From Mobula birostris (lineage: Eukaryota): a stretch of DNA of 64,000 bases. The stretch's first letter is position 1. Each line of letters begins with the position of its first letter. The notes under the pieces were generated by a model. It made no database searches and had not been told where the DNA came from. It saw only the letters and a list, made by a program, of their open reading frames with translations. Of this stretch, positions 10,046 to 60,630 are shown in pieces. Made by a program: the position numbers and the translations under genes. Location: contig NC_092381.1 of NCBI RefSeq assembly GCF_030028105.1, positions 26,205,550-26,269,549 on the forward strand, read 5' to 3'.

Positions 10046-10389
10046 GCCTGAGACATCACTCCTTGAAGATGCCTATGTGACCATTGTACTTAAATATTGT
10101 TAATCATCTATATATGAGACAAAATAACTTTCATTGTTCTAGTTGTCATGATCGAGTAATGTGAAACATATCTAAGCTTATCCCTCTCAGCACCTTTAGT
10201 CAGTCACCTCACAGCTGTGGAGGAGTAGAGAGGAGCCTGTTTCAGAAAGGCTGTCCCAAATGGGTGTAGTCATGAGCACAGTTTGTATCAATACTAACTT
10301 TGAAGGAGGGAAGAAGGGAATAAATCTGGAAGGATGAATGTCATTAGAAAACCCATAAAACACCAGCATGTCTAGTAGAACAGCTGCAA

Positions 10390-10485
10390 CAGACACAAAA
10401 TACTGGAGGGACTCAGAAGCCCAGGCAGCATCTATGGAAAGGAGTAAGCAGTTGACATTTCGGGCTGAGATCCTTCATCAGGACT
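10390..10485 (-). mobile_element. Penelope-like terminal fragment with hammerhead motif
   Basis: Homologous to 47630-47730. Minus strand reads AGTC CTGATGA AGGATCTCAGCCC GAAATGTC AACTG. Confidence 0.75.
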
Positions 10486-12871
10486 CACTCCATCCAGGTT
10501 CAGTCTTGACTCTGGTACTGTCTGTAGAAGTTTACACATTCTCCCCGGGTCATGTGGGTTTCCTCCTCCAGCCCAAAGATAAGCAGGTTGGTTGGTTAAT
10601 GGGTCTCTGTAAATTGTGCTTAGTGTCTAGATACCGTACATGGTAAAATCGTGGAGGAGATTAAAAATGAAATAAACGTAGAATCACTGTAAATGTATGG
10701 CTAATAGTCAGCATTAACTTGGAAGGTTGAAAGCCTTTTTTTATGCTCTCTCTGACTCTCATGGAAGTATAACTAGAATAACCATGCCATCTTGACATGG
10801 TGCCTTGGTGTCTATTCTAATCAAAAGCAAGTCTCTTCTGAACAACTCCTAACCAACCCTAAAGGTTGCTTGAATGATTATCAGTTGCGGCCTACTGTAG
10901 AGTGTTGCCCGGAAAGCCAGGCAGAGTGTGTAAAACAATGGTTGGGGGTGAAAACGTCAATGAGAAATGATCAATGGTGCTTGTAAAGCAATGAGGAAAA
11001 ATTATCTCGACTTTAATTTTGCATGCCATGAATCACATCGCTACACCGTTCCTTGAAGAAACGAGTCAAATTATTAAATCCAAACCCTGGTCCTACACTC
11101 CTGTAGTCAGCCTTCAAATAATATGCTGAGAGTCCAATCAAATGACAAGTAAGTGGAGAGGGCAATAAGGAGTCAAATGAAAGGCACTTATTCTTGTGCT
11201 GTGTAGTGTGTGAATGTTGGCTGCTTTAGCTGGTTCACTGCATACTCTTGGTGCATGTGCGTTGCTTCAGATGTGTGACACTTAACTTACCGCTCTTTCT
11301 GTGTGATTCCCCAGTGAGAGGAGTGAGTATATTGGCTGCCTGCAGGATTTAAATGGCAGTCTGCTGGGAATCTTCCGGCTGTGCTCTGTATGCGATTTAG
11401 CTACAACCAAGTCTCTGGTGACTGATTGCTCCCGCCGCTTTTGAGAGTCCTTCTCTCCAGCCTGATGTGCCAGATGTTTTTCTGGCTGAAAGGGCAACAG
11501 TTTCTTAATCTGTGTGTCAGGTGAATCTTTACAACTCCATGGCCGTGAAGCAGTTTCAGTGTACTACAAAATGTACAGTTCTATAGCAATCCTACTGTCT
11601 TCGAGGAAATTTCAGGTGCCTAATTGTTCAGCTGCAATACTCTGCTGATAAAAAAGGATTAATTTTATTCCTTTAATAGGTGACACAGAGTGGGAGAGAA
11701 AGCTTGTATTTTAATCTGGAGGTAGCAAAATTAATAACTAGTGGAACTTCCACAGTAAAAAAAATCATAGTGCTTCAGAGTAGCATAATGGCATAAAAAA
11801 TTAAGAACGCTTAAAAAAGCTGCTAGGACAGGATACTGGACAATTATCTTCCCTGATAGTCATGGGCAATGATAACATTCAAGATTCAAGATTGTCATTC
11901 ATCCTACATGAATATGAAGGAGAATAAAATGATTGTTACTCCTGATCCAATGCAGCATAATAAAAACACAGTACGATGTAAAAAACAAAAAAAAACACAA
12001 AAATATAAATATAAAACACCGTGTACAATGAAAGGGGTCAGGTCTTCCATTGGAGTGACAGAGACTGTGAAGTAAAAATGGGTCTCAGAGATGGCATTCT
12101 TGCCATAAAGGGATTTGCACAGGGCCCTGTGAAATTGTAAACTGAGGCCTCACTGGACAGAAACCAGAGCACATCAACAAACATGGGGTTACAGGGAATT
12201 AGAACCAGTTACAAGACAGATATTTTGATGCTTGACAGAAAAGCATGAGTGATTATTAGAGGAGCAGGTAGCATGGAATAGGATGGGGACTGTTAACTTG
12301 GAAGAAGGAGCTCTTACAATGGAGAGTAAATGGAGTTGAAGGCTTAAATCAGTATCAAATAAAGCACCAAAGTTAGTGTTTGATTTGATCATGTGGTTCA
12401 ATCTGAGGGAAAGTAGTGAGTGCTTCCCATCCGTCGCTAGGGAAAAGACGTGACATAATAGCTTTCTCAATATTAAGTGGGAGAATTTTCCTCAGACAAA
12501 GAGCTGGACAGAGGATGTGAGGATTTAAATTTAAAGTTGAATATATTATCACATGTACATCTGCAGGTATGTACAGGTGCGATGAGAAACTTAATTTGCA
12601 GTAGTGCCACAGGCACATAGCATCATTATAAGCAACATTCACATGAAAAACATAAAAGGAACATAAATTATGCACAGTAACACACAAATAGAACAAAAAA
12701 ATGTCAATTTTAGTTCAAAATATTCACAGTATTCATGGACATAATTATGACCCAAGGATGATAGACATAGTCATTGAGTGCTTTCAGGAAGTATCTTCAT
12801 AGATACAGAAGTGAATGTTATTTGTTGTCTAGCAAATAAAAGTGGAGAAATGGAACTGACCAAGAGGCCCG

Positions 12872-14230: not shown

Positions 14231-15289
14231 TGCCTCTATTCTGGTGCTTAATTTACTTGTTCCGGAGGATTACATTGACTTAACTTGACGTAAAATATGC
14301 ATGTTTCTAGTTGTCCATGCAGCTCATGACTTTTAAACTCACATTTTGCTAATCTTTGTTATACTAATCAGTTTTTGAATGTTAAGTATCTTCACATCAG
14401 CACTACACATGAGTAATTAGTGTGTTAGCAGTGTCAATTGATAGTAAGCTCCTTTTGATCAGGCCTATTTGTTTCTTTCCCCAATGGAGAGAGCAATGTA
14501 TCAAAGATGGTGCTAAATACCTGACTATTTAAAAGGAAGGATATCAAAGCCTCATAAGATTAAACAAATCAGCTCCAGCAACCCGGGTTCATTCTGCTGC
14601 TGTCTGTGAAGTGTCTGTAGGCTCTCCCAGTGATGCGTGTCACTTCTCCGGGTGCTCCGATTTCCTCCCACATTTCAAAGACATACAGGTTAGTAGGTTA
14701 ATTGGTCTTGTGGGTGTAATTGGGTGGTGTGGGCTTGCCGGGCCAGAGGGTCTGGTGCTATGCTGCATCTCTAAAGGAAAAAAATATTAAGTCAGAGTTC
14801 ACAGCTTCCTCAAAAAAAGAACAGATGGGTGTCTTTTATCCTGCACAGTGAAAGCTGAGGTATGAGATAATAAATTTGTAGGGCTATCAAAAGTTTGGTT
14901 GGGTCTACCCGGAGATGATTCCACATGCGGAGTTAATTCAAAATTAGGATTCACGAATAGAAGACAGTCACCCACAAATCCAAAGGTGAATCAGGATAAA
15001 TTCCTTTACTTGGTGGCTAAATGTGGAATTCACTGTAAAGGTCTAATCACTCATTCGTTCCTCAGGGAAAGTCTGAGACAAGAGCCAGGGTGTCACCTGA
15101 TGAGGGTGAGGAAGTTACCAGGCATATGGTCTGGGTAGTAGCAGAAAGCAGGAGAAGCAGCTTCTCATTGGGCTGTGGATGCTGCTTCTACTCAGAGTGG
15201 GAATGGCTTCCAGCTGGCTAGCTGAGTTCAGTGTGTGAGATGAGACAAGGAAGTCTCACAACCTAATTCAGAAGGCTCTCTCCCCACAC

Positions 15290-23061: not shown

Positions 23062-25345
23062 CACCTCTGAGAATTACAGAATTATTAAAACAGTCAAAAT
23101 AGATCTTAAAATATGGAAAACAAAGTTAAAGACATTTGTCTGCTGTAAATTAATTAAGAGCGCTAATATTGATTACGATGAAAAAATAAAACCAAACCAC
23201 TCACTTTTTCCATCCAGATCAATGACTCCTTCCAAATGAATGAATCCACATCTTCCTTATGAATCCAACAGTGTGCAGATCAAATGCAATGGCATCTGAT
23301 CTCCAGTCTGTTCTGTACCTCCCCGCTGCAAATTGTAGGCTTGGAGGTCAGGGCATACTGACCTGTGTGCAGTAGCTTGCCAGTAGTCCGCCTTTCAGCT
23401 GGATATTTAACTTCTAATGTGCATGATACAAATTTACAAAAGCTAACTTTAGTATCAGCTGAGCCACTTCTCAAAGACTAGATTAAAAAAAGAGTTTAAA
23501 TACTTTTTCTCTATTCCACTAACTCTGGTTGTTTATTTTCCTGTTCTGTAAACACCACACAATTCAAATATAACTCTTTTTAAAACTGTCAGCGGTGCTT
23601 AGATGTGCTTTGAATTTAAAAGCTACAGAGAACAGTTAGCAGATAGAGATAGTAAAGAATTACATTCTAGTCACACCCACCTTTCCTAATTTTCCTTTCT
23701 CTGTTTTGTCTCCTTTCCTGTTCCCTGAGGACTGGAGTGATTGATAGCCTAATCCAATGATTGTATTACACCAGCCTCACTCGGAATGTTTCCTTATCAT
23801 TAACAGTTACCCGATGGTTAAATTCACAGCTCACTGCTTGATGCAGCCCCTGAGATTTAAAGGTCTGGCCTTTAGAAAATATTTAAAATAAAATTGAAAT
23901 CTTGACAATACCAAGATCTTCATACTTTCTTATGTCATTTTTTAAAAATTAATTTGATGTAGAGTACGCAGGTCCCATGTAAGTCCATAATGTGACCAGC
24001 TATGTTAACAACTAACTGAAACGTGCTCCTACTTAAGAGACAACAAGTTGGGATAGTAAAATAAATATATTTGACTTTGCTTATGTGTTGACTAAGAGTA
24101 ATATTTATTCTAAGAGAGGAAAGCAGACAATATGGCTCCTATGCACTGATTTAAATCACTGCTCGTCTGAAGCAGTCAGAGAACGGAGGTGCCCTGAATG
24201 CAGTTTAAGCTCCCAAAGACAAAAAATATGCATCTCATAAACTTCCATTCTGTAGAAATGTCAACCTACGGTTGTGTGGTACTTCAAAACCTGCACTTGG
24301 CGTTTTATGCTGTCTACTCTGCCTTCATCTGTAAACATGAACATTTAACATTTGTGTAGGGCAGGTAACTACAAACATGTTATCTATTACCATAGCTTTT
24401 ATCCTCATTAACTACTTCCACTTGTTGGGCTGGGGAGGTGGGCAAGCAATAAACTTTGTCAAATAACTAAATTAACCTTTTTACAATTTCATTTCCGTTA
24501 GCTAATTTTACAATAAGAGCCTAATACCGCTCCAAGAAGGAGAGTGATCAATATGGTTTGGTTTAGTTTCTGCATGACTTAATCCTGAAATGCAACTTGA
24601 CAACCTCCTATCAAGAACAAAAATTCGATCATTGGAAGATACTCATGGCAGACAAATGAGAAAGAGGAAAAGCAAAATGAACTCATGAGCTATGAATCTG
24701 CAATAAATATGCACTCTTTTAAAAATAAGGAAATGACTTCTAACTTACAGCTTTGAGAAGCTGACTGTTCGAAGAAGTTGGAATTAAAGTACTTTCTCAT
24801 TAAGAGGTAATTTTCTATCAAGTTTATTTTGTCTATGTAAAAAAAACTCTAGGTATTCCCACTTTTGAATTTACCCAAATGAACAGACTTTATTCCTTTA
24901 TCTGAATGTAAATGACAGCAATGGTTAAAAAAGTGCACTAGAGGCAAATACAATTTGGTGTAAAGTGTTCACATTAAAATATCGAAGCAGTGCAGACTGC
25001 GTTGATATGAGTAAGTTGAAGTTTGTGGTTTCTATTCAAAAATGAGTGTTAATTAAATCTTGAAAAGAGAAACTGTGCTAATACAAGTTACTACAAAGGG
25101 CTTCAAGATACTTCTTTCATTTATCGTTTAACTTCTCCCCACCCACTTTACTGAAGCATTGTGCCAATAAAAGAAATTGCTATTAGAAGTGCTTGCAGAC
25201 TCAGACTTGTCCATCTGTCAATATGATTAGTTATGTTGACCAACAGCAAGCAAGGTGCCTTGAAAGGGAATTGATATTAGAAGTTGTCACCGTTTTGTCT
25301 ATAGTCTCAGAGGGAACGCTGCACGGTGGTGAAGGCAATGCTTAC

Positions 25346-25465
25346 CAGACACACCGCCATATGTGGTTTGCTTGTCTCTACCAACGGCAGGCACAGGTGT
25401 GCCATCTGCAAGTACCCCTATCAGCCCAGAGACTGTGTTGATTGCTGTAATACCATCTGCACCAC
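25346..25465 (-). CDS. DPYD: DPYD coding exon (exon 18 equivalent), [40 protein letters not shown](G)
   Basis: Minus strand reads ttctcacag|GTGGTGCAG...GTGTCTG|gtaagc. 120 nt, phase 1/1. NTVSGL and TTYGGVSG motifs; overlaps ORF 25299..25481. Confidence 0.97.
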
Positions 25466-25775
25466 CTGTGAGAAAATACAACAGTTATTTAAATTCCAAT
25501 CCACAGAATAATATCTTTTGATTTTGGTTTCAATATAATAGCTAGAGAATAGATGGCATGAGTCATTTCAAAGTTAGTGGCACGGAATGACAGGGACCAT
25601 TATCAAATAAAAGGGGTGTGTTTTTAATTGATGTACGTAAGCTATTTGAAAATTAATGTAAAAGGAAGGACAATCAAAATGAAAGATATAAAGAAGTAAT
25701 TCTCAAGGACTAAAGAATTATTCTCAAGTAGAATTTTAATCTCTTTATATTCAGTTCCCACTGCCATTTTCTTAC

Positions 25776-25896
25776 CTTCCTGAGCTGCCATCGCTATGTT
25801 TACAATGTCGGTGACGTTCGGGGTCAGCTTGGCAAAGAACGGAATCTTAACAGCTTGCCGTACCCAGCGGCAGATGTTTTGCACCAGCCTTGGATC
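25776..25896 (-). CDS. DPYD: DPYD coding exon (exon 17 equivalent), [40 protein letters not shown](G)
   Basis: Minus strand reads gaacag|GATCCAAGG...CAGGAAG|gtaaga. 121 nt, phase 0/1. FAKLTPN FMN-binding motif; overlaps ORF 25642..25884. Confidence 0.98.
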
Positions 25897-26584
25897 CTGT
25901 TCAAATGGGTCAGTTACAGAACTAGATGAGAAACTAATCTGATAAAGCTGTGCACAGAGACAGGTATAGCTTCATGCTGCCAGTCTGACTGCACTGCGTG
26001 TGACATTGCAGGGACTGCAACCCTCTCATTACTTGATCCTCAGATCACAGCATAAACAGCAGAGCTGTAATAATATCATCTAACACAATTGCATTTTCCT
26101 TGTCTACTAAATAAGCCGAATGAATCAGCCTCCATTATAGCATAATAGCATTACTTGACTAATACTGATCGAGAAAGGTGATTACAATGAATTATCCATT
26201 AAGGTATTGAAACTACTGTTATTAATAAACTTCCTTTCTTACGAATAAAGAAAACATAATTGCTGATACTAAATCATTTTTTTTCACTTTCTCATTACTG
26301 CTCCCCTGCTTTATTGAAAGATTAGATTCACTTTTTTTTAACAATTCATTACCCTTTAAACATTCACTCAAGTTAGATTAATTACACATAGAATGTGGCC
26401 AGTCTGTGCTGCTGGGGGTTGGAGGTGATTGGCAGTTAAGTAGGTTTCTGGGTGGCTGGAGCAATGCTCAGTCAATTTTGCCTCTGTTGTCTTTTAGCAG
26501 TGTGATGATAGAGGCATTGTGGTTAATTTATTAGACTCGCAATCCACAGCCTGGACTAAAATTTCAGATATGTGAGAGGTAACA

Positions 26585-26705
26585 TAAGCACAAGGGATTC
26601 TGCAGATGCTGGAAATTCAGAGTAACACAGACAAAATGCTGAAGGAACTCAGCAGGCCAGGGAGCAGCCATGGAGAGGAATGAATAGTCGACATTCCGGG
26701 CAGAA
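26585..26705 (-). mobile_element. Penelope-like terminal fragment with tail, truncated inside the hammerhead region
   Basis: TTCTGCAGATGCTGGAAATTCA...CAAAATGCTGAAGGAACTCAGCAGGCCAGG...GTCGACATT, homologous to the other PLE ends. Confidence 0.75.
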
Positions 26706-29582: not shown

Positions 29583-30195
29583 GTAAGTACCGGCCTTGTC
29601 AGTGATGCCTTTACCTTATAAACAAATAATCAAAAGAAAACTGCAGAATGAAATCTGAAACAGGTATTAGGTCCTTGATTTGCAGAAACAATAAACTTTG
29701 TTCCTGTGTTAGATTGGTGCCCTTGACGATCATATTATGTCATGATCAATATGGCTTACTGCACAAGGCACGTGCATATTTGATGCAATGAACCATATTG
29801 GGTCATTTCACAGAACATTGCACAATTAACCTTCCAATGAAGATGTCTGCTGCTCACTCGTGAGATAAACTGCCCTCATCCCCAAGGCAGGAATTTTGCT
29901 CCTTTCAAAGTTACTGAGATTTTTAATAAACTTATAATTAATACACCAGGAACAGAGTAGTTCAAATTTCACAACATACAGTATGTCAGTCATAATAAAA
30001 CGTTACTCTCTTTCTAAGGCTGCAAAGCCTATTGAGCCTGCTCTGCTCTTAGACAGTAGCTGACATGCAGCTTTACTCCATTTATCTGCCTTAGGCTATT
30101 TCTCAAAGCTATCACCAATAAAACCTATCAATCTCAGTTTTGAAAATTTAAAATTTCCAGCAACCCCGATCCTATCTATGAAAACTTGCTTTCTT

Positions 30196-30862
30196 AGCAA
30201 CACACACAAAATGCTGGAGGAACTCAGCAGGTCAGGCAGCATCTTTGGAAATGAATGAACAGTCAAAGCTGAAGAAAGTTGTCAAATTGTTCAGCTCTAT
30301 CATGGGCACTATCCTCCTTGGTATCCAGGACATCATCAAGGAGCGGTACCTCAAAAAGGTACTGTTCAACATTAAAGATCCCCATCAACCAGAACATGTC
30401 TTGTTCTCATTGCTACCATCAGGAAGGAGGTACAGAAACCTGAAGAGGCAAACACTCAATTATTCAGGAACAGCTTCTTTCCCTCTGGCATCCAATTTCT
30501 GAATGGACGTTGAAACTACATCATTACTTTTCTCATTTCATTTTTTAGCACTACTTACTTAATTTAACTATTTCATTTATTTATATATATCCATATGGTA
30601 ATTAAAATTTTTTCTCTATTACTACATATTGCATTGCACTGCTGCCACAAAGATGACAAATTTCATGACATATGCTGGTGATATTAAACCTGATTTTGAT
30701 TCTGAATTTCCCTCATCCTTTCCAGGCCTGATGAAGGGTCTCAGCTCAAAACGTTGACTGTTAATTCATTTCCAAAGATGTTGCCTGACCTTCTGAGTTC
30801 CTCCAACATTTTGGGTGTGTTAATTTGGATTTCCAGCATCTGCAAACCTTCTCGTGATTATG
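30196..30862. mobile_element. Older Penelope-like inverted-end insertion, with a Rex1 3' fragment (~30267-30705) between the arms
   Basis: The arm at 30196-30266 is the reverse complement of ~30754-30822, followed by the family tail. Imperfect TSD ACTTGCTT(T/C)CTT. Confidence 0.78.
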
Positions 30863-41053: not shown

Positions 41054-42973
41054 ACACACAAAATGTTGGTGGAACGCAGCAGGCCAGACAGCACCCATAG
41101 GAAGAAGCACAGTCGACATTTTGGGCTGAGACCCTTTGTCAAGACTAACTGAAAGAAGAGATAGTAAGAGATTTGAAAGTGGGAGGGGGAGGGGGAGATC
41201 TAAAACGATAGGAAAAGACGGGGGGAGGGACAGAGCTAAAAGCTGGAAAGTTGATTGGCAAAAGGGATACAAGGCTGGAGAAGGGAGAGGATCATGGGAC
41301 GGGAGGCCTAGGGGGAAAGAAAGGGGGAGGAGAGCGTCAGAGGAAGATGGCGAGCAGGCAAGCAGTTATTGTGAGAGGGACAGAGAGAGAAAAAGGAGAG
41401 AGAGAATAAAAGAGGAAAAAATAAAAAATAATAAATAAATAAGGGATGGGGTAAGAACGGGAGGAGGGGCATTAACGGAAGTTAGAGAAGTCAATGTTCA
41501 TGCCATCAGGTTGGAAACTACCCAGACGGAATATAAGGTGTTGTTCCTCCAACGTGAGTGTGGCTTCATCTTTACAGTAGAGGAGGCCATGGATAGACAT
41601 ATCAGAATGGGAATGGGACGTGGATTTAAAATGTGTGGCCACTGGGAGATCCTGCTTTCTCTGGCGGACAGAGCATAGGTGTTCAGCGAAATGATCTCCC
41701 AGTCTGCTTCCGGTCTTACCAATATATAGAAGGCTGCACTGGGAGCACCGGATGTAGTATATCACCCCAGCCGACTCACAGGTGAAGTGTCGCCTCAACT
41801 GGAAGGACTGTATGGGGCCCTGAATGGTGGTGAGGGAGGAAGTGTAAGGGCATGTGTAGCACTTGTTCCACTTACAAGGATAAGTGCTGGGAGGGAGATC
41901 GGTGGGAAGGGATGGGGGGGACGAATGGACAAGGAGGTCGCCTAGGGAGCGATCCCTATGGAAAGCAGAAAGTGGGGGAGGGAAAGATGTGCTTGGTGGT
42001 GGGATCCCATTGGAGGTGGCGGCAGTTACAGAGAATTATATGTTGGACCCAGAGGCTGGTGGGGTGGGAGGTGAGGACAAGGGGAACCCTAGCCCTAGTG
42101 GGGTGGCGGAAGGATGGGGTGAGAGCAGATGTGCGTGAAATGGGAGAGAAGCATTTGAGGGCAGAGTTGATGGTGGAAGAAGGGAAGCCCCTTTCTTTAA
42201 AAAAAGAAGATATCTCCTTCGTCCTGGAATGAAAGGCCTCATCCTGAGAGCAGATGCGGCAGAGATGGACAAATTGCAAGAAGGGGAGACAGGGTGGGAA
42301 GAGGAATTGTCCAGGTAACTGTGAGAGATCGTAGGCTTAAAGTAGACATCAGTAGGTAAGCTGTCTCCAGAGATAGAGTCAGAAAGATCAAGAAAGGGGA
42401 GGGAGGTGTCAGAAATGGATCAGGTAAACTTGAGGACAGGGTGAAAGTTGGAGGCAAAGTTAATGAAGTCAACAAGCTCAGCATGCGTGCAGGAGCAGCA
42501 CCAATGCGGTCGTTGATGTAGTGAAGGAAAAGTGGAAGACGGATACCAGTATAGGCTTGGAACATGGACTGTTCCACAAAGCCAACAAAAAGGCAGATAC
42601 AGTATAGTTGGGACCCATACGGATGCCCATGACTACACCTTTAGTTTGAAGGAAGTGGGAGTAGCTGAAGGAGAAATTACTAAGAGTAAGGACTCATTCC
42701 GCTAGACAGAGGAGAGTGGTGGTAGAGGGGAACTGGTTAGGTCTGGAATCCAAAAAGCGGAGAGCTTTGAGACCTTCTTGCTGGGGGATGGAGGTATATA
42801 GGAACTGGACATCCATGGTGAAAATAAGGCTGTAATTATTTCTCCTTCGTCTCCTCCCACTTCCTCCAAACTAAAGGTGTAGCCATGGGCATCCGTATGG
42901 GTCCCAGTTATGCCTGCCTTTTTGTTAGCTTTGTGGAACAGTCCATGTTCCAAGCCTATACTGGTATTTTGAC
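41054..42973 (-). mobile_element. Penelope-like element (RT + GIY-YIG endonuclease), decayed, with a 5' inverted duplication
   Basis: VIYYIRCSQCSLLYIGKT...HF...E...LGSFQPDGMN (GIY-YIG), YIND (YIDD-like), GVAMGIRMGPSYA (seen in the inverted duplicate). 14-bp TSD TCATAAACTGCTGT at 41040-41053 and 42974-42987. Confidence 0.92.
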
Positions 42974-45082: not shown

Positions 45083-46308
45083 ATCTTCTCCTTCTTGATT
45101 TATTTGTTTTTCTCTGAAGGATTTTGAATTTATTCTAATCTTTGGGCTCTTCACTATCCTTTGCCCCTTACATAATTTCTACCACCTTGTGCCTTACAGT
45201 ACATTATACAAAGAAGCTTAATGTCTCGGTAAATCCTATTCTAACTGCTCCCTTTGGAAACCCATAGAGCTAGCCTTGAAGTCTTTTTTCTCAGTTACAT
45301 GAGAACACATGGATGTTTGTGAAGAAAAAGAATTTCAGGAAGTATATTGTATATATTTCTGTGACATTAAATGTACCTATTAAACCTATGGAACACTATC
45401 TAAAAACATTAAGTTACTGTGATACTCACATTAATGTGAAAACCACTGCTCTTGACTTATCCACCAACTGTAACATATTTCATTAATTTTCTGAAATTTA
45501 GTATTGATTCTAAAATCTCTGATATCTTGTGCTTAACTGCTTTGAATATCTCCACCAATGGCAACCATGCCTTCAGTGGCCTGGCCTCTAAATTCCTGAA
45601 TTACTTTTACCTCTTTATCTTCCACACCGTTTCTAAGTATATAAGTGCAATTTGTTATCGTGACTTGGGTAGGAGTCCAGCCGGGAACAGAGGGATTAAA
45701 CGTCCACTTGATGCACCAGTTGTAATGATGGTATAGGAAGTGAATATCTGTCCAGTTTTGGAGGCATCTGTCCATACTTTGCTCTTGCATGAAAGTTCCC
45801 CTCAATGAATTTTGAGATGGCTATTAGATATAGATATTAGTCACACTGGTGCACTGAGGCAGATGCTGATGAATAGTAACTGGGAGACCGCTTTGCACTT
45901 CAGTTACATGTGTCAGCATTTTACAATCATTTGGTACTTTCACCAGTGAATATAATAATTACGAGTAACCGGATGGTAAGTGGCCAATGTCCTTGACTCC
46001 AACCATTTCCAATTGTAGAGAGGAAGGTGGTATGCAATCTGCCTGAGCTGTCAAGCACATCTCAAAGTGATCATTCAACATAACACCACTGATAGTCAAT
46101 AACTTGTAGGGAAACGATGATGAAAGAGAAGTACTCTTAGGAGATTCCCTTCCTGAAATGTCCTACCATAATCACCTTTGCACAGGCCCTCGGGATCGCC
46201 ACAATGTACAATTCAACCGCTCTTGATTATATTTCTGGTGATGTTTAGACCTTGGTACTCAGTGATGTTGCGAATTGTGCCAAAGTGACTCAAATGAACT
46301 ATCCTCAG

Positions 46309-47731
46309 CACGCATGCTGAGCTCGTTGACTTTATTAACTTTGCCTCCAACTTTCACCCTGCCCTCAAGTTTACCTGGTCCATTTCCGACACTTCCCTCC
46401 CCTTTCTAGATCTTTCTGTCTCTATCTCTGGTGACAGCTTATCCACTGATGTCTACTATAAGCCTACTGACTCTCACAGCTATTTGGACTATTCCTCTTC
46501 TCACCCTGTCTCTTGCAAAAATGCCATCCCCTTCTCGCAATTCCTCCGTCTCCGCCGCATCTGCTCTCAGGATGAGGCTTTTCATTCCAGGATGAGGGAG
46601 ATGTCCTCCTTTTTCAAAGAAAGGGGCTTCCCTTCCTCCACCATCAACTCTGCTCTCAAACACATCTCCCCCATTTCACGCACATCTGCTCTCACTCCAT
46701 CCTCCCGCCACCCCACTAGGAATAGGGTTCCCCTGGTCCTCACCTACCACCCCACCAGCCTCCGGGTCCAACATATTATTCTCCGTAACTTCTGCCACCT
46801 CCAACGGGATCCAACCACTAAGCACATCTTTCCCTCCTCCCCTCTCTGCTTTCCGCAGGGATCGCTCCCTACGCGACTCCCTTGTCCATTCGTCCCCCCC
46901 ATCCCTCCCTACTGATCTCCCTCCTGGCACTTATCCTTGTAAGTGGAACAAGTGCTACACATGCCCTTACACTTCCTCCCTTACCACTATTCAGGGCCAC
47001 AGACAGTCCTTCCAGGTGAGGCGACACTTCACTTGTGAGTCGGCTGGGGTGATATACTGCGTCCGGTGCTCCCGATGTGGCCTTCTATATATTGGCGAGA
47101 CCCGATGCAGACTGGGAGACCGCTTTGCTGAAAGCCTACGCTCTGTCCGCCAGAGAAAGCAGGATCTCCCAGTGGCCACACATTTTAATTCCACGTCCCA
47201 TTCCCATTCTGACATGTCTATCCACGGCCTCCTCTACTGTAAAGATGAAGCCACACTCAGGTTGGAGGAACAGCACCTTATATTCCGTCTGGGTAGCCTC
47301 CAACCTGATGGCATGAACATTGACCTCTCTAACTTCCGCTAATGCCCCACCTCCCCCTCGTACCCCATCCGTTATTTATTTTTATACACACATTCTTTCT
47401 CTCACTCTCCTTTTTCTCCCTCTGTCCCTCTGACTATACCCCTTGCCCATCCTCTGGGTTCCCCCCACTGTCTTTCTCCCCAGACCTCCTGTCCCATGAT
47501 CCTCTCATATCCCCTTTGCCAATCACCTGTCCAGCTCTTGGCTCCATCCCTCCCCCTCCTGTCTTCTCCTATCATTTTGGATCTCCCCCTCCCCCTCCCA
47601 CTTTCAAATCTCTTACTAGCTCTTCCTTCAGTTAGTCCTGACGAAGGGTCTCGGCCTGAAACGTCGACTGCACCTCTTCCTAGAGATGCTGCCTGGCCTG
47701 CTGTGTTCACCAGCAACTTTGATGTGTGTTG
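46309..47731 (+). mobile_element. Young 5'-truncated Penelope-like element (RT C-terminus, GIY-YIG, terminal repeat)
   Basis: LPFLDLSV, VYYKPTDS, IPFSQFLRLRRICS, VIYCVRCSRCGLLYIGET...LQPDGMN; one frameshift near 46840. 10-bp TSD CTATCCTCAG at 46299-46308 and 47732-47741. Confidence 0.95.
47633..47670 (+). ncRNA. Minimal type I hammerhead ribozyme motif in the PLE terminal repeat
   Basis: TAGTC-CTGACGA-AGGGTCTCGGCCT-GAAA-CGTC-GACTG. CUGANGA and GAAA core, helix I UAGUC/GACUG, short helix II, palindromic ACGT helix III, GUC cleavage triplet. Activity untested. Confidence 0.8.
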
Positions 47732-49050
47732 CTATCCTCAGTTTTGTTCAGTTAGGTTAGTTTTTTTCTGAATCGGAGCACAGAAATTCCGATTTGCGCC
47801 ATCACTGGGCAGCTGAACCAGCTGTAATGAATTAGATTCAGTGGGCTCTATGAGAGTTCTGCCTGAAGACCATCGATCCTTAGCTAATGAGGCCTGGACT
47901 CAGAACAAACACTGTGCTGACCAAAGCATTGGAGAGTCAGTGGCGCACTCTGGCAAGCACAATGCCAAGTCAACCAGAGCACCCCTTGGAGCCAGCAACA
48001 GTGAACGCTCTTAACATATGAAAAACTATACATGAAGCATTAAAGGTAGCTGTTTGTCAGATTTACGGGAGACATTTAAGGATTCAGAAAAAAAAAGAGT
48101 CCAAATGTCACAATTCAACATTATAACTCAAGAGAACTCAGCAAAGATGTTCATAAAATTGATGAATATAGAGTCGAACCATTGGGAAAAAAAATGATGG
48201 GATGGGATGATGAACAGAGGAGTGGAAATAACCAGTTTCTACTTTCAGATTACTGGTACATTTGCTATTCAACTAAATGCATCCAGGTAAGGTTGAAAAC
48301 TGAAATAAATGGGCATAATTATTATAAACACTGCAATTATACTAAATTCTTGTTCGCAAATTCAAAACTGGAGACAAAGGTGGTTTCCAGTTGGAAAATT
48401 GGCAACATTTACAAAATTAAATATTATACCTTCACCAATCTTCACACATGCTATTTTTTTTCTGAATTCTGATAAATGGAATGTTGTTTAACATGACAGA
48501 TACCTGTACATCTATATTGTACTGAGTCCTCAATGGTGTTCAGACCACAGAATAATAACTAAGGAGATAGAAATTTGCTGGTAAAACTGTTCACAAAAGT
48601 TTTCCCTTGCATTAGAAAAACAGAAGATCACTCCTTGATTGATGAGTTTATTTAGGCCGGAATTAATGTTAGGATGAGCTCACTTAGGAACTATATGGAG
48701 CACATTCAGTAGCCAATGGCATACATTAGTGCCATTGTGCACAATGGATATAGACATGAGATAAAGATCAGGTGAAGTGGCGTTCCTGGTTTACAGGAGG
48801 TTGTGATGATCCTCTTCGTCCCAGCTGAGTGGCCAACTCAAATTGCGTATTAGAACAATTCAGAGAATAGTTGAGGACTCCTCTCCTCCAACATAGTGTG
48901 GTAGTGCAGAGTAGCATGGAAACAGATCCTTCAATCGAATATGTCCATGCCAACCAAGATTCATTTCAAGCTAGCACCATTTGCCTACATCTGGCTCATA
49001 TACATCTAAAGTTTTCTCTATCCATGACTACATTTTCTTTTAAACATTGT

Positions 49051-50002
49051 ACAGTACTGTGCAAAAGTCTTCGTCAGTCGAGATTTTTTATGTGGTTTCA
49101 GATGGTAATGCCTCCACAGAGCCCTGAAATCAACATCATCGAGGCTGCCTGGGATTACTTGGAGGGAAGAAGCAAGTGAGACAGCCAAAGACTGCTGAAG
49201 AACTGCGTCAAGTTCTCTAAGATGCTTGGAATAACCTACCAACTGATTTTTGTATAAAACCACACAAGAGTGTGGTTTTGAAAGAACTGATCCAGTTTTA
49301 AAAGCAAAGTGTTGTCCCACCAAATATTGATTTGATTTAGTTTTTTACTGTTTAGAGTCATAGAGTCATAGAAAAGTACAGCACAGTAACAGGCCCTTCA
49401 GCCCATCTAGTCCATGCTGAAACATTTAAACTGCCTGCAACACACATCAAAGTTGCTGGTGAACGCAGTAGGCCAGGCAGCACCTCTTCCTAGAGGTGCT
49501 GCCTGGCCTGCTGCGTTCACCAGCAACTTTGATGTGTGTTGCTTGAATTTCCAGCATCTGCAGAATTCCTGTTGTTTGCATTTAAACTGCCTAGTCCCAT
49601 CAAACTTCACCGGGAATACAGTCATCCAAACTTCCAAACTTCTCTTAAACATTGAAATCAAGCCTGACATGCACCACTTGCACTGGGTATCTTGTTCCGC
49701 ACTCTCAGAAACCTCTCAATGAAGAAGCTTTATACTCATGTTCCCCTTAAACTTCTCACCTTTTACCTTTCACCCTTAAACCATGACCTCTAGTTGCAGT
49801 CCCACCCAACCGCAGTGGAAAAAGCCTGCTTACATTTACCCTAACTATACCCCTCATAATTGTGTATACCTCTATCAAATCTCCCCTCAATCTCTTTGTA
49901 ATAATTTTTTTTTTGATTTTAAGGGACTTTTCATTTCATTATGTTGAAAGCATCTTTGCTTTACAGATTTTATTTACGTGGGCCCAAGACTTTTGCACAG
50001 TG
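49051..50002 (+). mobile_element. Non-autonomous Tc1 element interrupted by a CR1 3' end (~49352-49895, minus)
   Basis: TIRs CAGTACTGTGCAAAAGTCTT / AAGACTTTTGCACAGT; PPQSPEINIIEAAWDYL remnant. CR1 tail (TAGAGTCA)n at ~49352. Confidence 0.8.
49437..49578. mobile_element. Penelope-derived fold-back mini-insertion: 51-bp stem, 4-nt loop, 36-nt tail
   Basis: Arms 49437-49487 and 49492-49542 with one mismatch. 14-bp TSD CATTTAAACTGCCT at 49423-49436 and 49579-49592. Confidence 0.95.
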
Positions 50003-50652: not shown

Positions 50653-50817
<165 letters not shown>

Positions 50818-50861: not shown

Positions 50862-51240
50862 CAAACACAAAAGATCCTACATATTCTGGAAATATTGGGG
50901 GACACACACAAAGTACTGGAGGAACTTAGCAGGTCAGGGAGCATCTATGAACAGGAATCATCATTCGATATTTCAGGCCAAAACCCTCCATCAGGACTGG
51001 AAAGGAAGGGAGGAGAAGTCAGAATAAGAATGTGGGATGAGGGGAAGGAGTACAAGCTGGCAGATGATAGGCGAAACCAGTTGAGAGAGGATGGGGGATG
51101 AATTAAGAAGCTGGAAGGTGTTAGTTGGAAGAGGTAAAGGGCTGAAGAAGGAGTCTGATAGGAGAGGGCCATGGGAGGAAGAGAGGGAGGAAGGGAACCA
51201 GAGGGAAGTGATGGGCAACTGAGGAGAAGAGAACGAGTAA
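50862..51240 (-). mobile_element. Older Penelope-like terminal repeat just upstream of the DPYD exon 16 acceptor
   Basis: ACACACAAAGTACTGGAGGAACTTAGCAGGTCAGG...TTTCAGGCC...CATCAGGACTGG plus a purine-rich body. Confidence 0.78.
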
Positions 51241-56832: not shown

Positions 56833-57355
56833 AAGCAACACACATCAAAGTTGCTGGTGAATGCAGCAGGCCAGGCAGTATCTCTAGGAAGAGGTACAGT
56901 CGACTTTTCGGGCCGAGACCCTTCGTCAGGATTAACTGAAGGAAGAGTGAATAAGGGATTTGAAAGTGGGAGGGGGAGGGGGAGATCCACAATGATAGGA
57001 GAAGACAGGAGGGGGAGGGTTGGAGTCAAGAGCTGGACAGGTGATAGGCAAAAGGGGATACGAGAGGATCATGGGACAGGAGGCCTACATGATCCTCTCA
57101 TATCCCTTTTGCCAATCAACTGTCCAGCTCTTGGCTCCATCCCTCCCCTTCCTGTCTTCTCCTATCATTTTGGATCTCCCCCTCCCCCTTTCAAATCTCT
57201 TACTAGCTCTTCTTTCAGTTAGTCCTGACGAAGGGTCTCGGCCCGAAATGTCGACTGTACCTCTTCCTAGAGATGCTGCCTGGCCTGCTGCGTTCATCAG
57301 AAACTGATGTGTGTTGCTTGAATTTCCAGCATCTGCAGATTTCCTCGTGTTTGTG
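56833..57355. mobile_element. Inverted pair of Penelope-like terminal repeats (two hammerhead motifs) inserted into an old CR1 3' end (~56700-57520)
   Basis: Arms 56833-57073 and 57088-57319, 36-nt tail. 15-bp TSD TAATTTAAGAGACTC at 56818-56832 and 57356-57370. Confidence 0.93.
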
Positions 57356-58223
57356 TAATTTAAGAGACTCTTGGATAGGCACATGGATGAAAGAAAAATG
57401 GAGGGTCATGAGACATGTAGGAGGGAAGGGTTAAATTGCTCTTGGAGTAGCTTAAGAGGTTGACACATCATGGGCCAGAGGACCTTTACTGTGCTGCACT
57501 ATTCTCTGTTCTGCATTCTGCATTCCAAAAACGTTCTCCTCAATCCAGACATATGATCTCACTAATCTCATCTCAGTCAGAGAAAAAACAATCTCTCTTA
57601 TATTCTTTGCCACACCCATATACACCCTATTTCCTTCTGCAATGTCCCATAGAAGAAGCTTCTACCCCAAGTAAACCTCTCACTCTTCTATTTTAGCTGC
57701 CACATACCTGCATAGCAACGTGCCTTTCTCTACATTTGTATTAATTAAAACTCCTACTCTCATCCTGAAGCAGCAGAGATTTGGGGAGATGGGGTGGTAT
57801 CATTTCTCCTAGTAAATTTCCCCATAATCACTGCCCTAATTCCAAACAATACAGGTTTACAAGTTTATTACGCATGCCCAGCCAGATCTGGTTGGATCAT
57901 ATAGGGTCCCCTTTGATGTTGGTATAAAATTGTCTGAATATTCACATAAATGATTTCACTGCACCAGTAATCCAGCATAACTGAACAGATAGGAATTGGA
58001 ACTGGGTCATTGGAATTGGTTTATTATTGTCACAGGTACTGATGTACAGTGAAGTGCTTGTCTGGCATACAGATAAAATCATTACACAGTATATTGAGGT
58101 AGTACAAGCTAAAACAAGAACAAAATGTAGAATAAAGTGTAACAGCTACGAGAAAGTGCAGTCCAGGTAATCAAAAAAGTGCAAGAACACAACAATAGCC
58201 AATAGTCTATTTTATCATACTAG

Positions 58224-60561: not shown

Positions 60562-60630
60562 CTCTGCCATTTTTGCAAGCTCTGTCCAGTCATCCTTGTT
60601 GTAAGTGCACATAAGGCTGGCAATGATGAT
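60562..60630 (-). CDS. DPYD: DPYD coding exon (human exon 15 equivalent), IIIASLMCTYNKDDWTELAKMAE
   Basis: Minus strand reads ctcctaacag|ATCATCATTGCC...ATGGCAGAG|gtagat. 69 nt, phase 0/0. Peptide matches the recalled human [23 protein letters not shown]. Not in the ORF track. Confidence 0.96.

Follow-up and report, generated by a model that had tools for sequence, protein, structure and literature searches.

The window, by which we mean the whole 64,000-nucleotide stretch of the Mobula birostris genome that was analysed (NC_092381.1, positions 26,205,550 to 26,269,549), carries at 47633-47670 on the forward strand what its sequence identifies as a minimal type I hammerhead motif, located in the terminal repeat (pseudo-LTR, pLTR) of a Penelope-like element (PLE). 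The motif belongs to a dead, 5′-truncated copy of the element. We consider that the hammerhead was probably a weak cutter in the parent elements and is likely inert at this site, because the element is broken and faces against its host gene, DPYD. The focal copy is not special, as it has tens of thousands of equals in the genome.

The focal motif and its element

The motif had been found in a sequence-only reading of this DNA, and its sequence is as that reading gave it, with the core, helices, palindrome and GUC site in place. The parts map onto hammerhead numbering as follows.

47633..47670, +, minimal type I hammerhead motif, predicted to be cut after C47665; G10.1•U11.1 variant
47633-47637, +, helix I 5′ arm
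47638-47644, +, core C3-A9
47645, +, extra A (A47645), between 9 and 10.1
47646-47657, +, helix II and loop
47658-47661, +, GAAA
47661-47664, +, palindrome ACGT (15.1-16.1)
47665, +, C17
47666-47670, +, helix I 3′ arm

The catalytic core (C3UGANGA9...G12AAA), U16.1 and H17 are all present. Helix I (4-5 bp) and helix II stand around the core with nine pairs, three of which are G•U, and helix III is absent. What is left of helix III is palindromic at 15.1-16.1 and would permit a dimer helix III, with a predicted duplex energy of only -1.7 kcal/mol. The extra A that had been reported between core and helix II is found in the focal copy too, where folding favours the register with this nucleotide unpaired (P 0.96) and rules out a shifted A-U register for helix II (0.02). 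The typical, highly conserved G10.1-C11.1 pair, which is not part of the core, is replaced by G•U.

A full descriptor of core and both helices matched the window twice (47633 and 57220), against no match in 200 approximate dinucleotide shuffles, while the loose core pattern alone gave 11 matches across the window against 7.0 expected, which is not significant. The proposed check with the Rfam hammerhead covariance models yielded no match, whether at the gathering score or with E relaxed to 10. No hammerhead core was found on the opposite strand of the focal copy.

The motif is of a published kind, extra A included, as judged from the available parts of the report on the minimal hammerheads in the pLTRs of PLEs (Cervera and De la Pena, 2014; PMC4209133), which supports its identification as a dimer-type hammerhead with a palindromic helix III remnant. 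Such motifs, with the extra nucleotide, the palindrome and opposite-strand pairs, are described there from PLEs of fish (Xena, Poseidon, Neptune), coelacanth, frog (Xenopus) and reptiles. Like ours, they are of type I with a short helix I, are palindromic in helix III (15.2-16.2), have an unpaired base between 9 and 10.1, and sit in pLTRs, mostly as dispersed single copies and with opposite-strand pairs a few hundred bases apart. In vitro they showed no activity as monomers and low activity as dimers (PMC4209133). Our motif differs in the dominance of G10.1•U11.1 and in a helix II of 3-4 bp, as against 6-8 bp in the Schistosoma and D. virilis motifs, and cartilaginous fishes are not named among the PLE hammerhead hosts in the parts of that report available to us.

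The element around the motif comprises the following features.

46299..46308, no strand, target-site duplication, left copy, 10 bp
46309..47731, +, 5′-truncated, frameshifted Penelope-like element (reverse transcriptase (RT) C-terminal part, Zn-finger linker, GIY-YIG endonuclease, pLTR)
46298..46915, +, RT C-terminal frame, leaving the endonuclease frame at a C-rich tract
46848..47342, +, CX4CX2C linker and GIY-YIG endonuclease with CCHH, from translation; stop TAA at 47340-47342
47343..47731, +, pseudo-LTR, pyrimidine-rich; ends at the first of two 3′-end classes, without the 36-nt tail
47732..47741, no strand, target-site duplication, right copy, 10 bp

The focal element begins downstream of the RT catalytic YIDD, so that the catalytic RT core is absent, and its RT-endonuclease junction measures 24 nt between anchors, which is out of frame. 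Among 31 copies that were not picked by a protein query, the in-frame junction of 26 nt is the mode (14/31). A programmed frameshift between RT and endonuclease was rejected, as its apparent constancy was a product of the query and the in-frame state is the commonest one among unbiased copies. The C-rich tract at this junction (46820-46850 in the window) varies from 21 to 38 nt among the 31 copies and is a frameshift hotspot. The Pfam GIY-YIG model scored E 0.04 in the focal copy and E 0.0011 in the copy at 41472-42035, both below the curated cut-off.

Across 46308-47735 the focal element shares 94.6% identity with a full-length copy, L061. L061 is a partial tandem of pLTR and ribozyme, a long RT frame (RVT_1 E 7.8e-5, below the curated cut-off), endonuclease, and a second pLTR and ribozyme. 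Its pLTR is thus repeated upstream of the ORF, and its two hammerhead motifs lie 3,516 nt apart on both sides of the coding region, the upstream one 170 nt before the ATG. [quoted passage not shown] The focal ribozyme has no upstream, same-strand pLTR partner.

These motifs (DKG, the CX4CX2C linker, GIY-YIG with CCHH) are of the Neptune/Nematis type, an assignment judged by motifs and not by a tree. In the available text of PMC8557442, Neptune/Nematis PLEs with an endonuclease likewise have a C-terminal GIY-YIG with CCHH, a Zn-finger linker (CX2-5CxxC), DKG, partial tandems, inverted 5′-truncated partners and a 30-40-nt tail, and the pLTRs, the inverted partners and the tail are all present in our family, in which the 3′ ends of 293 copies fall into two classes about 36 nt apart, corresponding to the PLE tail. 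The linker is absent from Penelope and Poseidon. The insertions differ from those of Neptune/Nematis, with 7-15-bp duplications in unique DNA in place of a microsatellite bias (PMC8557442). The anole Poseidon PAc also has a hammerhead at the junction of pLTR and ORF and two 3′-end classes about 36 nt apart, although its ORF begins within the ribozyme (Frangieh et al., 2024; PMC11167929), whereas in our family 138 nt separate the cut from the ATG behind it. Non-LTR retrozymes, as far as the available part of their description goes, share type I hammerheads of PLE origin and are reported from one chondrichthyan, but they are non-coding tandem arrays (bioRxiv 10.64898/2026.07.22.740005). The focal locus is the end of a coding element and not such an array with a hammerhead per unit, and only 2 of 30 motif-centred loci have a same-strand partner within 1.5 kb.

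Relatives in the window and the DPYD introns

All six relatives that the sequence-only reading had placed in the window are present there. Its count of six copies needs a change of unit, since the seven motifs, all of them real, derive from six insertions, two of them (56897, -, and 57220, +) belonging to one head-to-head insertion. These relatives, one ribozyme-less insertion and the exons of the host gene are as follows.

10386..10489, -, older-subfamily stub from the ribozyme edge; sense to DPYD; motif 10449-10485 with a disrupted helix I
25344-25466, -, DPYD exon
25774..25899, -, DPYD exon, aa 686-727; follows the intron with the focal copy
30724..30844, +, older-subfamily copy, core G12 mutated
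41054..42827, -, older 5′-truncated copy; motif 41110-41147, core broken; sense to DPYD
49437..49586, no strand, small fold-back insertion of the family 3′ end without ribozyme; 13-bp duplication
50734..50817, -, DPYD exon, aa 659-686 of P0011; precedes the intron with the focal copy
50902..51050, -, older-subfamily copy, core A9 mutated (motif ~50962); sense to DPYD
56834..57356, no strand, head-to-head insertion with motifs 56897-56934(-) and 57220-57257(+), inside a 15-bp target-site duplication
60562-60630, -, DPYD exon

In the head-to-head insertion, the 56897 motif is mismatched in helix I and its palindrome is broken, and the 57220 motif has a U•G palindrome. The focal copy alone among the seven retains both core and palindrome. 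Its earlier rating as the best candidate for activity holds within this set and no further: it has G•U at 10.1/11.1, lies antisense, lacks an upstream partner, and is predicted to leave helix I unformed when at least 12 upstream pLTR bases are included, and tens of thousands of copies equal it. Fold-back insertions of the type at 49437-49586 recur at independent loci (L087, L099, L177), sharing one junction close behind the ribozyme and made via short microhomology. Further ribozyme-less or truncated family ends lie at ~26593-26704(-) and ~30195-30268(-).

DPYD is a gene of ~795 kb on the minus strand, its full-length best matches being those of sharks and rays (95%), and four of its exons fall in the window. 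All seven motifs are intronic, as had been proposed. Conserved intronic hammerheads are described from amniotes in the available part of PMC6155905, and the intronic location could potentially be explained by domestication of the copies as regulators of the DPYD pre-mRNA. We regard this as scarcely credible. The focal copy is antisense and its opposite strand has no core, all four motifs sense to DPYD in the window are mutated, and 188 relics of all ages were found by profile within 860 kb around DPYD. Leaving aside the 12 that lie beyond the first mapped exon, 176 relics are inside DPYD, 92 of them sense and 84 antisense (P 0.60), and the intact ones divide 10 to 10, so there is no strand depletion. 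A domesticated intronic hammerhead would be expected to be sense to its host and under purifying selection; here the orientation is antisense, decay is neutral and a strand bias is lacking. The location in DPYD carries no signal.

Two observations concern the introns themselves. Some 85 nt separate the end of the sense-oriented old copy at 50902-51050(-) from the DPYD exon that follows it at 50817, and the copy has a pyrimidine tract and CAG that could act as a cryptic acceptor. At 15013-15287(+), antisense in a DPYD intron and adjoining a LINE fragment, is a match to nuclear RNase P RNA (Rfam RF00009, 93 bits) with four further related places in the genome (79-97%), which is probably a retrocopy.

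Family size, decay and constraint

Two 34-nt patterns have 34,393 exact matches in the genome, 26,943 with U at 11.1 and 7,450 with C, as compared with 4,000-9,000 copies obtained by a different method in the available part of PMC4209133. A further exact pattern gave 30,073 matches and a downstream anchor 44,437, and the reversed controls gave none throughout. With 445 matches, the ORF's 5′ end is rare. If the density around DPYD is typical, there are perhaps several hundred thousand relics genome-wide by extrapolation.

Inserted copies decay neutrally, with no protection of the core. Core CpGs decay at the pace of loop CpGs: in 60 old copies G12>A is seen in 25/60 and loop G>A in 27/60, and in 62 young copies (kept from 67 after five with indels were dropped) G8>A is seen in 5/62, G12>A in 4/62 and the loop change in 6/62. 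Helix covariation in 58 copies scored 0.167 against 0.163 when shuffled, with 156/500 shuffles as high, a test that is uninformative because the helix pairs are invariant between the subfamily majorities. In these majorities, taken from 14 young and 26 older copies, 36/37 positions of the motif agree, every catalytic position and the helix III palindrome included, against 26/40 in the upstream and 47/60 in the downstream flank, a contrast partly favoured by the discovery of copies with a motif profile. This identity suggests that the motif was probably constrained in the parent elements. The sequence-only reading had looked to core conservation and covariation as its test, and the outcome is divided: neither covariation nor protection after insertion was found, while the motif is conserved between subfamilies.

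Position 11.1 is an exception. U is found here in 39/62 young copies, against changes in 2-8/62 at other CpG bases, is linked to subfamily sites, and occurs in 78% of otherwise intact copies genome-wide (26,943/34,393), with G-C the older-subfamily majority. Mere CpG decay was rejected on these grounds. The most successful parents would thus have had G10.1•U11.1, without the conserved G10.1-C11.1.

U11.1 as the master variant (39/62 against ~10% CpG decay elsewhere) also fits a reading in which the motif is hammerhead-derived and no longer cuts, being kept as a promoter or initiator, a 3′ splice site or a protein-binding signal. PLE clades without hammerheads proliferate well, as described in the accessible portion of PMC8557442, and the role of hammerheads in PLEs is still regarded as open (PMC8557442; PMC11167929). 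The retention of all catalytic positions and of the palindrome between subfamilies speaks against such a loss of cutting, as do the pairing of helix II that G•U still allows and the cutting of the related anole motif with protein help (PMC11167929). We think this reading rather unlikely, and prefer a weakly cutting ribozyme in the parents.

Two variants were seen among the subfamilies. In one older subfamily C replaces core A6 (7/60 old copies), a recurring core variant with copies at L128:1888, L112:4399, L171:4115, L148:2233, L143:9585 and L151:9490. Another has an altered helix II loop and different downstream sequence, with stems and core unchanged (L111:3017, L111:3680, L143:1658, L063).

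Where copies begin and what the ribozyme may do

Family copies begin preferentially at one feature.

47632..47639, +, ribozyme front edge, pile-up of family 5′ ends

A sample of 135 copies was drawn from anchor matches, the first 100 exact ones on C1 and all 35 of the DPYD region, with the sequence behind the ribozyme as the sole ground for selection. Of their 5′ ends, 32/135 fall in a span of 7 nt at the helix I front edge, where 3.1 were expected (the P of 1e-21 is overstated because members of inverted pairs are not independent), and the hazard of ending there is 0.046 per base, against 0.002-0.008 elsewhere. By inspection, the older subfamilies share this edge. At the cut site lies 1/135. 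The ends are thus not a fossil of cleavage with 5′ ends at G1.1, which was rejected on this count and because no full-length copy (0/30) begins there, the nearest being 3-7 nt off. From the same contrast between edge and cut we infer that the copied RNA was mostly uncut. In the anole element, too, there is no sign of cut RNA as template and no RNA ends at the cut; priming is tail-internal, and its hammerhead is protein-assisted and dispensable in vitro (PMC11167929). The missing peak at the cut also speaks for the non-cutting alternative.

Among 72 edge-ending copies, an inverted partner adjoins 40 and a direct piece 3, and the remaining 29 border on non-element DNA, 13 of them directly on a target-site duplication of at least 7 bases. 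Splicing to a common first exon is not supported as the cause of the pile-up, since edge copies adjoin an inverted partner or target DNA and not a shared exon. No GT-AG joint was found among the listed assembled contigs of four presumed-RNA runs, contigs that cannot show starts or ends. Of 445 copies with the ORF start, 30 were examined; 17 reach the upstream ribozyme edge, where 6 stop and 11 run on, which speaks against transcription start as the whole explanation. The share that stops (6/17, 35%) resembles that of the general sample (32/111, 29%), a likeness that is also consistent with a barrier inherent in the site.

The sequence at 47632-47639 reads, by consensus pattern, both as an initiator-like YYANWYY and as the YAG end of a pyrimidine tract. 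A pyrimidine tract and YAG adjoin helix I in every subfamily seen, a point in favour of the non-cutting alternative. The D. virilis Penelope intron likewise ends at helix I (PMC4209133, in the part available), and that element has an internal promoter as well as the intron (PMC2377424, likewise). The copied RNA may start at the front edge. As to the cause of the pile-up, we consider the chances of an RNA 5′ end to be evenly balanced; a barrier at the 3′-splice-site-like signal is a lesser though real candidate, and processing of a cDNA hairpin or microhomology is improbable. In a literature search of partial coverage, which lends the result little weight, no report was found on this PLE family or on 5′ ends at a ribozyme edge.

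Folding predictions, with energies that leave out tertiary contacts, give an inactive rod as the best fold of the 38-mer, with core G5-G8 paired to 15.2-17, the helix III bases (P 0.98). This rod would also agree with a motif that no longer cuts. When the RNA begins at 47634, helices I and II have a predicted P of ~0.5 (helix I 0.46 without upstream bases), and with at least 12 upstream pLTR bases helix I falls to P ≤0.01. No stable fold of 47634-47733 was found beyond shuffles (z +0.80).

The predicted helices I and II of an RNA with this start, together with the intact core and palindrome and the abundance of identical partners, could be taken to mean that the focal copy's own pLTR drives its transcription, antisense in the DPYD intron, and that the copy cuts in trans with identical RNAs. 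Such an intermolecular helix of 4 bp is predicted to be very weak and would compete with the intramolecular rod; motifs of this sort, when tethered as dimers, are poor cutters in vitro (PMC4209133, available part), and nothing specific to the locus supports it. We hold trans-cutting at this site to be very unlikely, and inertness to be the probable state of the focal copy.

In the parent elements, the hammerhead likely cut RNA weakly, probably aided by a second copy or by the element's protein. Reverse transcription would start at two tail sites ~66 and ~102 nt behind the cut and would usually copy uncut RNA. About 30% of the cDNAs that reach the ribozyme appear to stop at its front edge, probably since many transcripts begin there. 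A ribozyme at the RNA 5′ end is predicted to be able to form helices I and II, and a motif read through from the pLTR to be masked by a hairpin upstream of it, so that the priming tail would be spared. More tentatively, the first base of the ribozyme could be the transcription start, the same 37 bases serving as DNA promoter and as RNA ribozyme. Position would then act as a switch, in which the 5′ copy folds and the read-through 3′ copy, masked by the hairpin, keeps its priming tail, and tail-primed reverse transcription running off the uncut 5′ end would seed ribozyme stubs of 100-135 nt, perhaps several hundred thousand relics and possibly the largest hammerhead load counted in a genome.

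Taken singly, the focal locus carries little weight, being the debris of a transposon of a kind already described. The family has modest weight: its tens of thousands of young copies form a fossil record in which the copied RNA appears mostly uncut and an event took place at the front edge of the ribozyme, and its two natural variants at 11.1, U and C, allow a direct comparison within one family.
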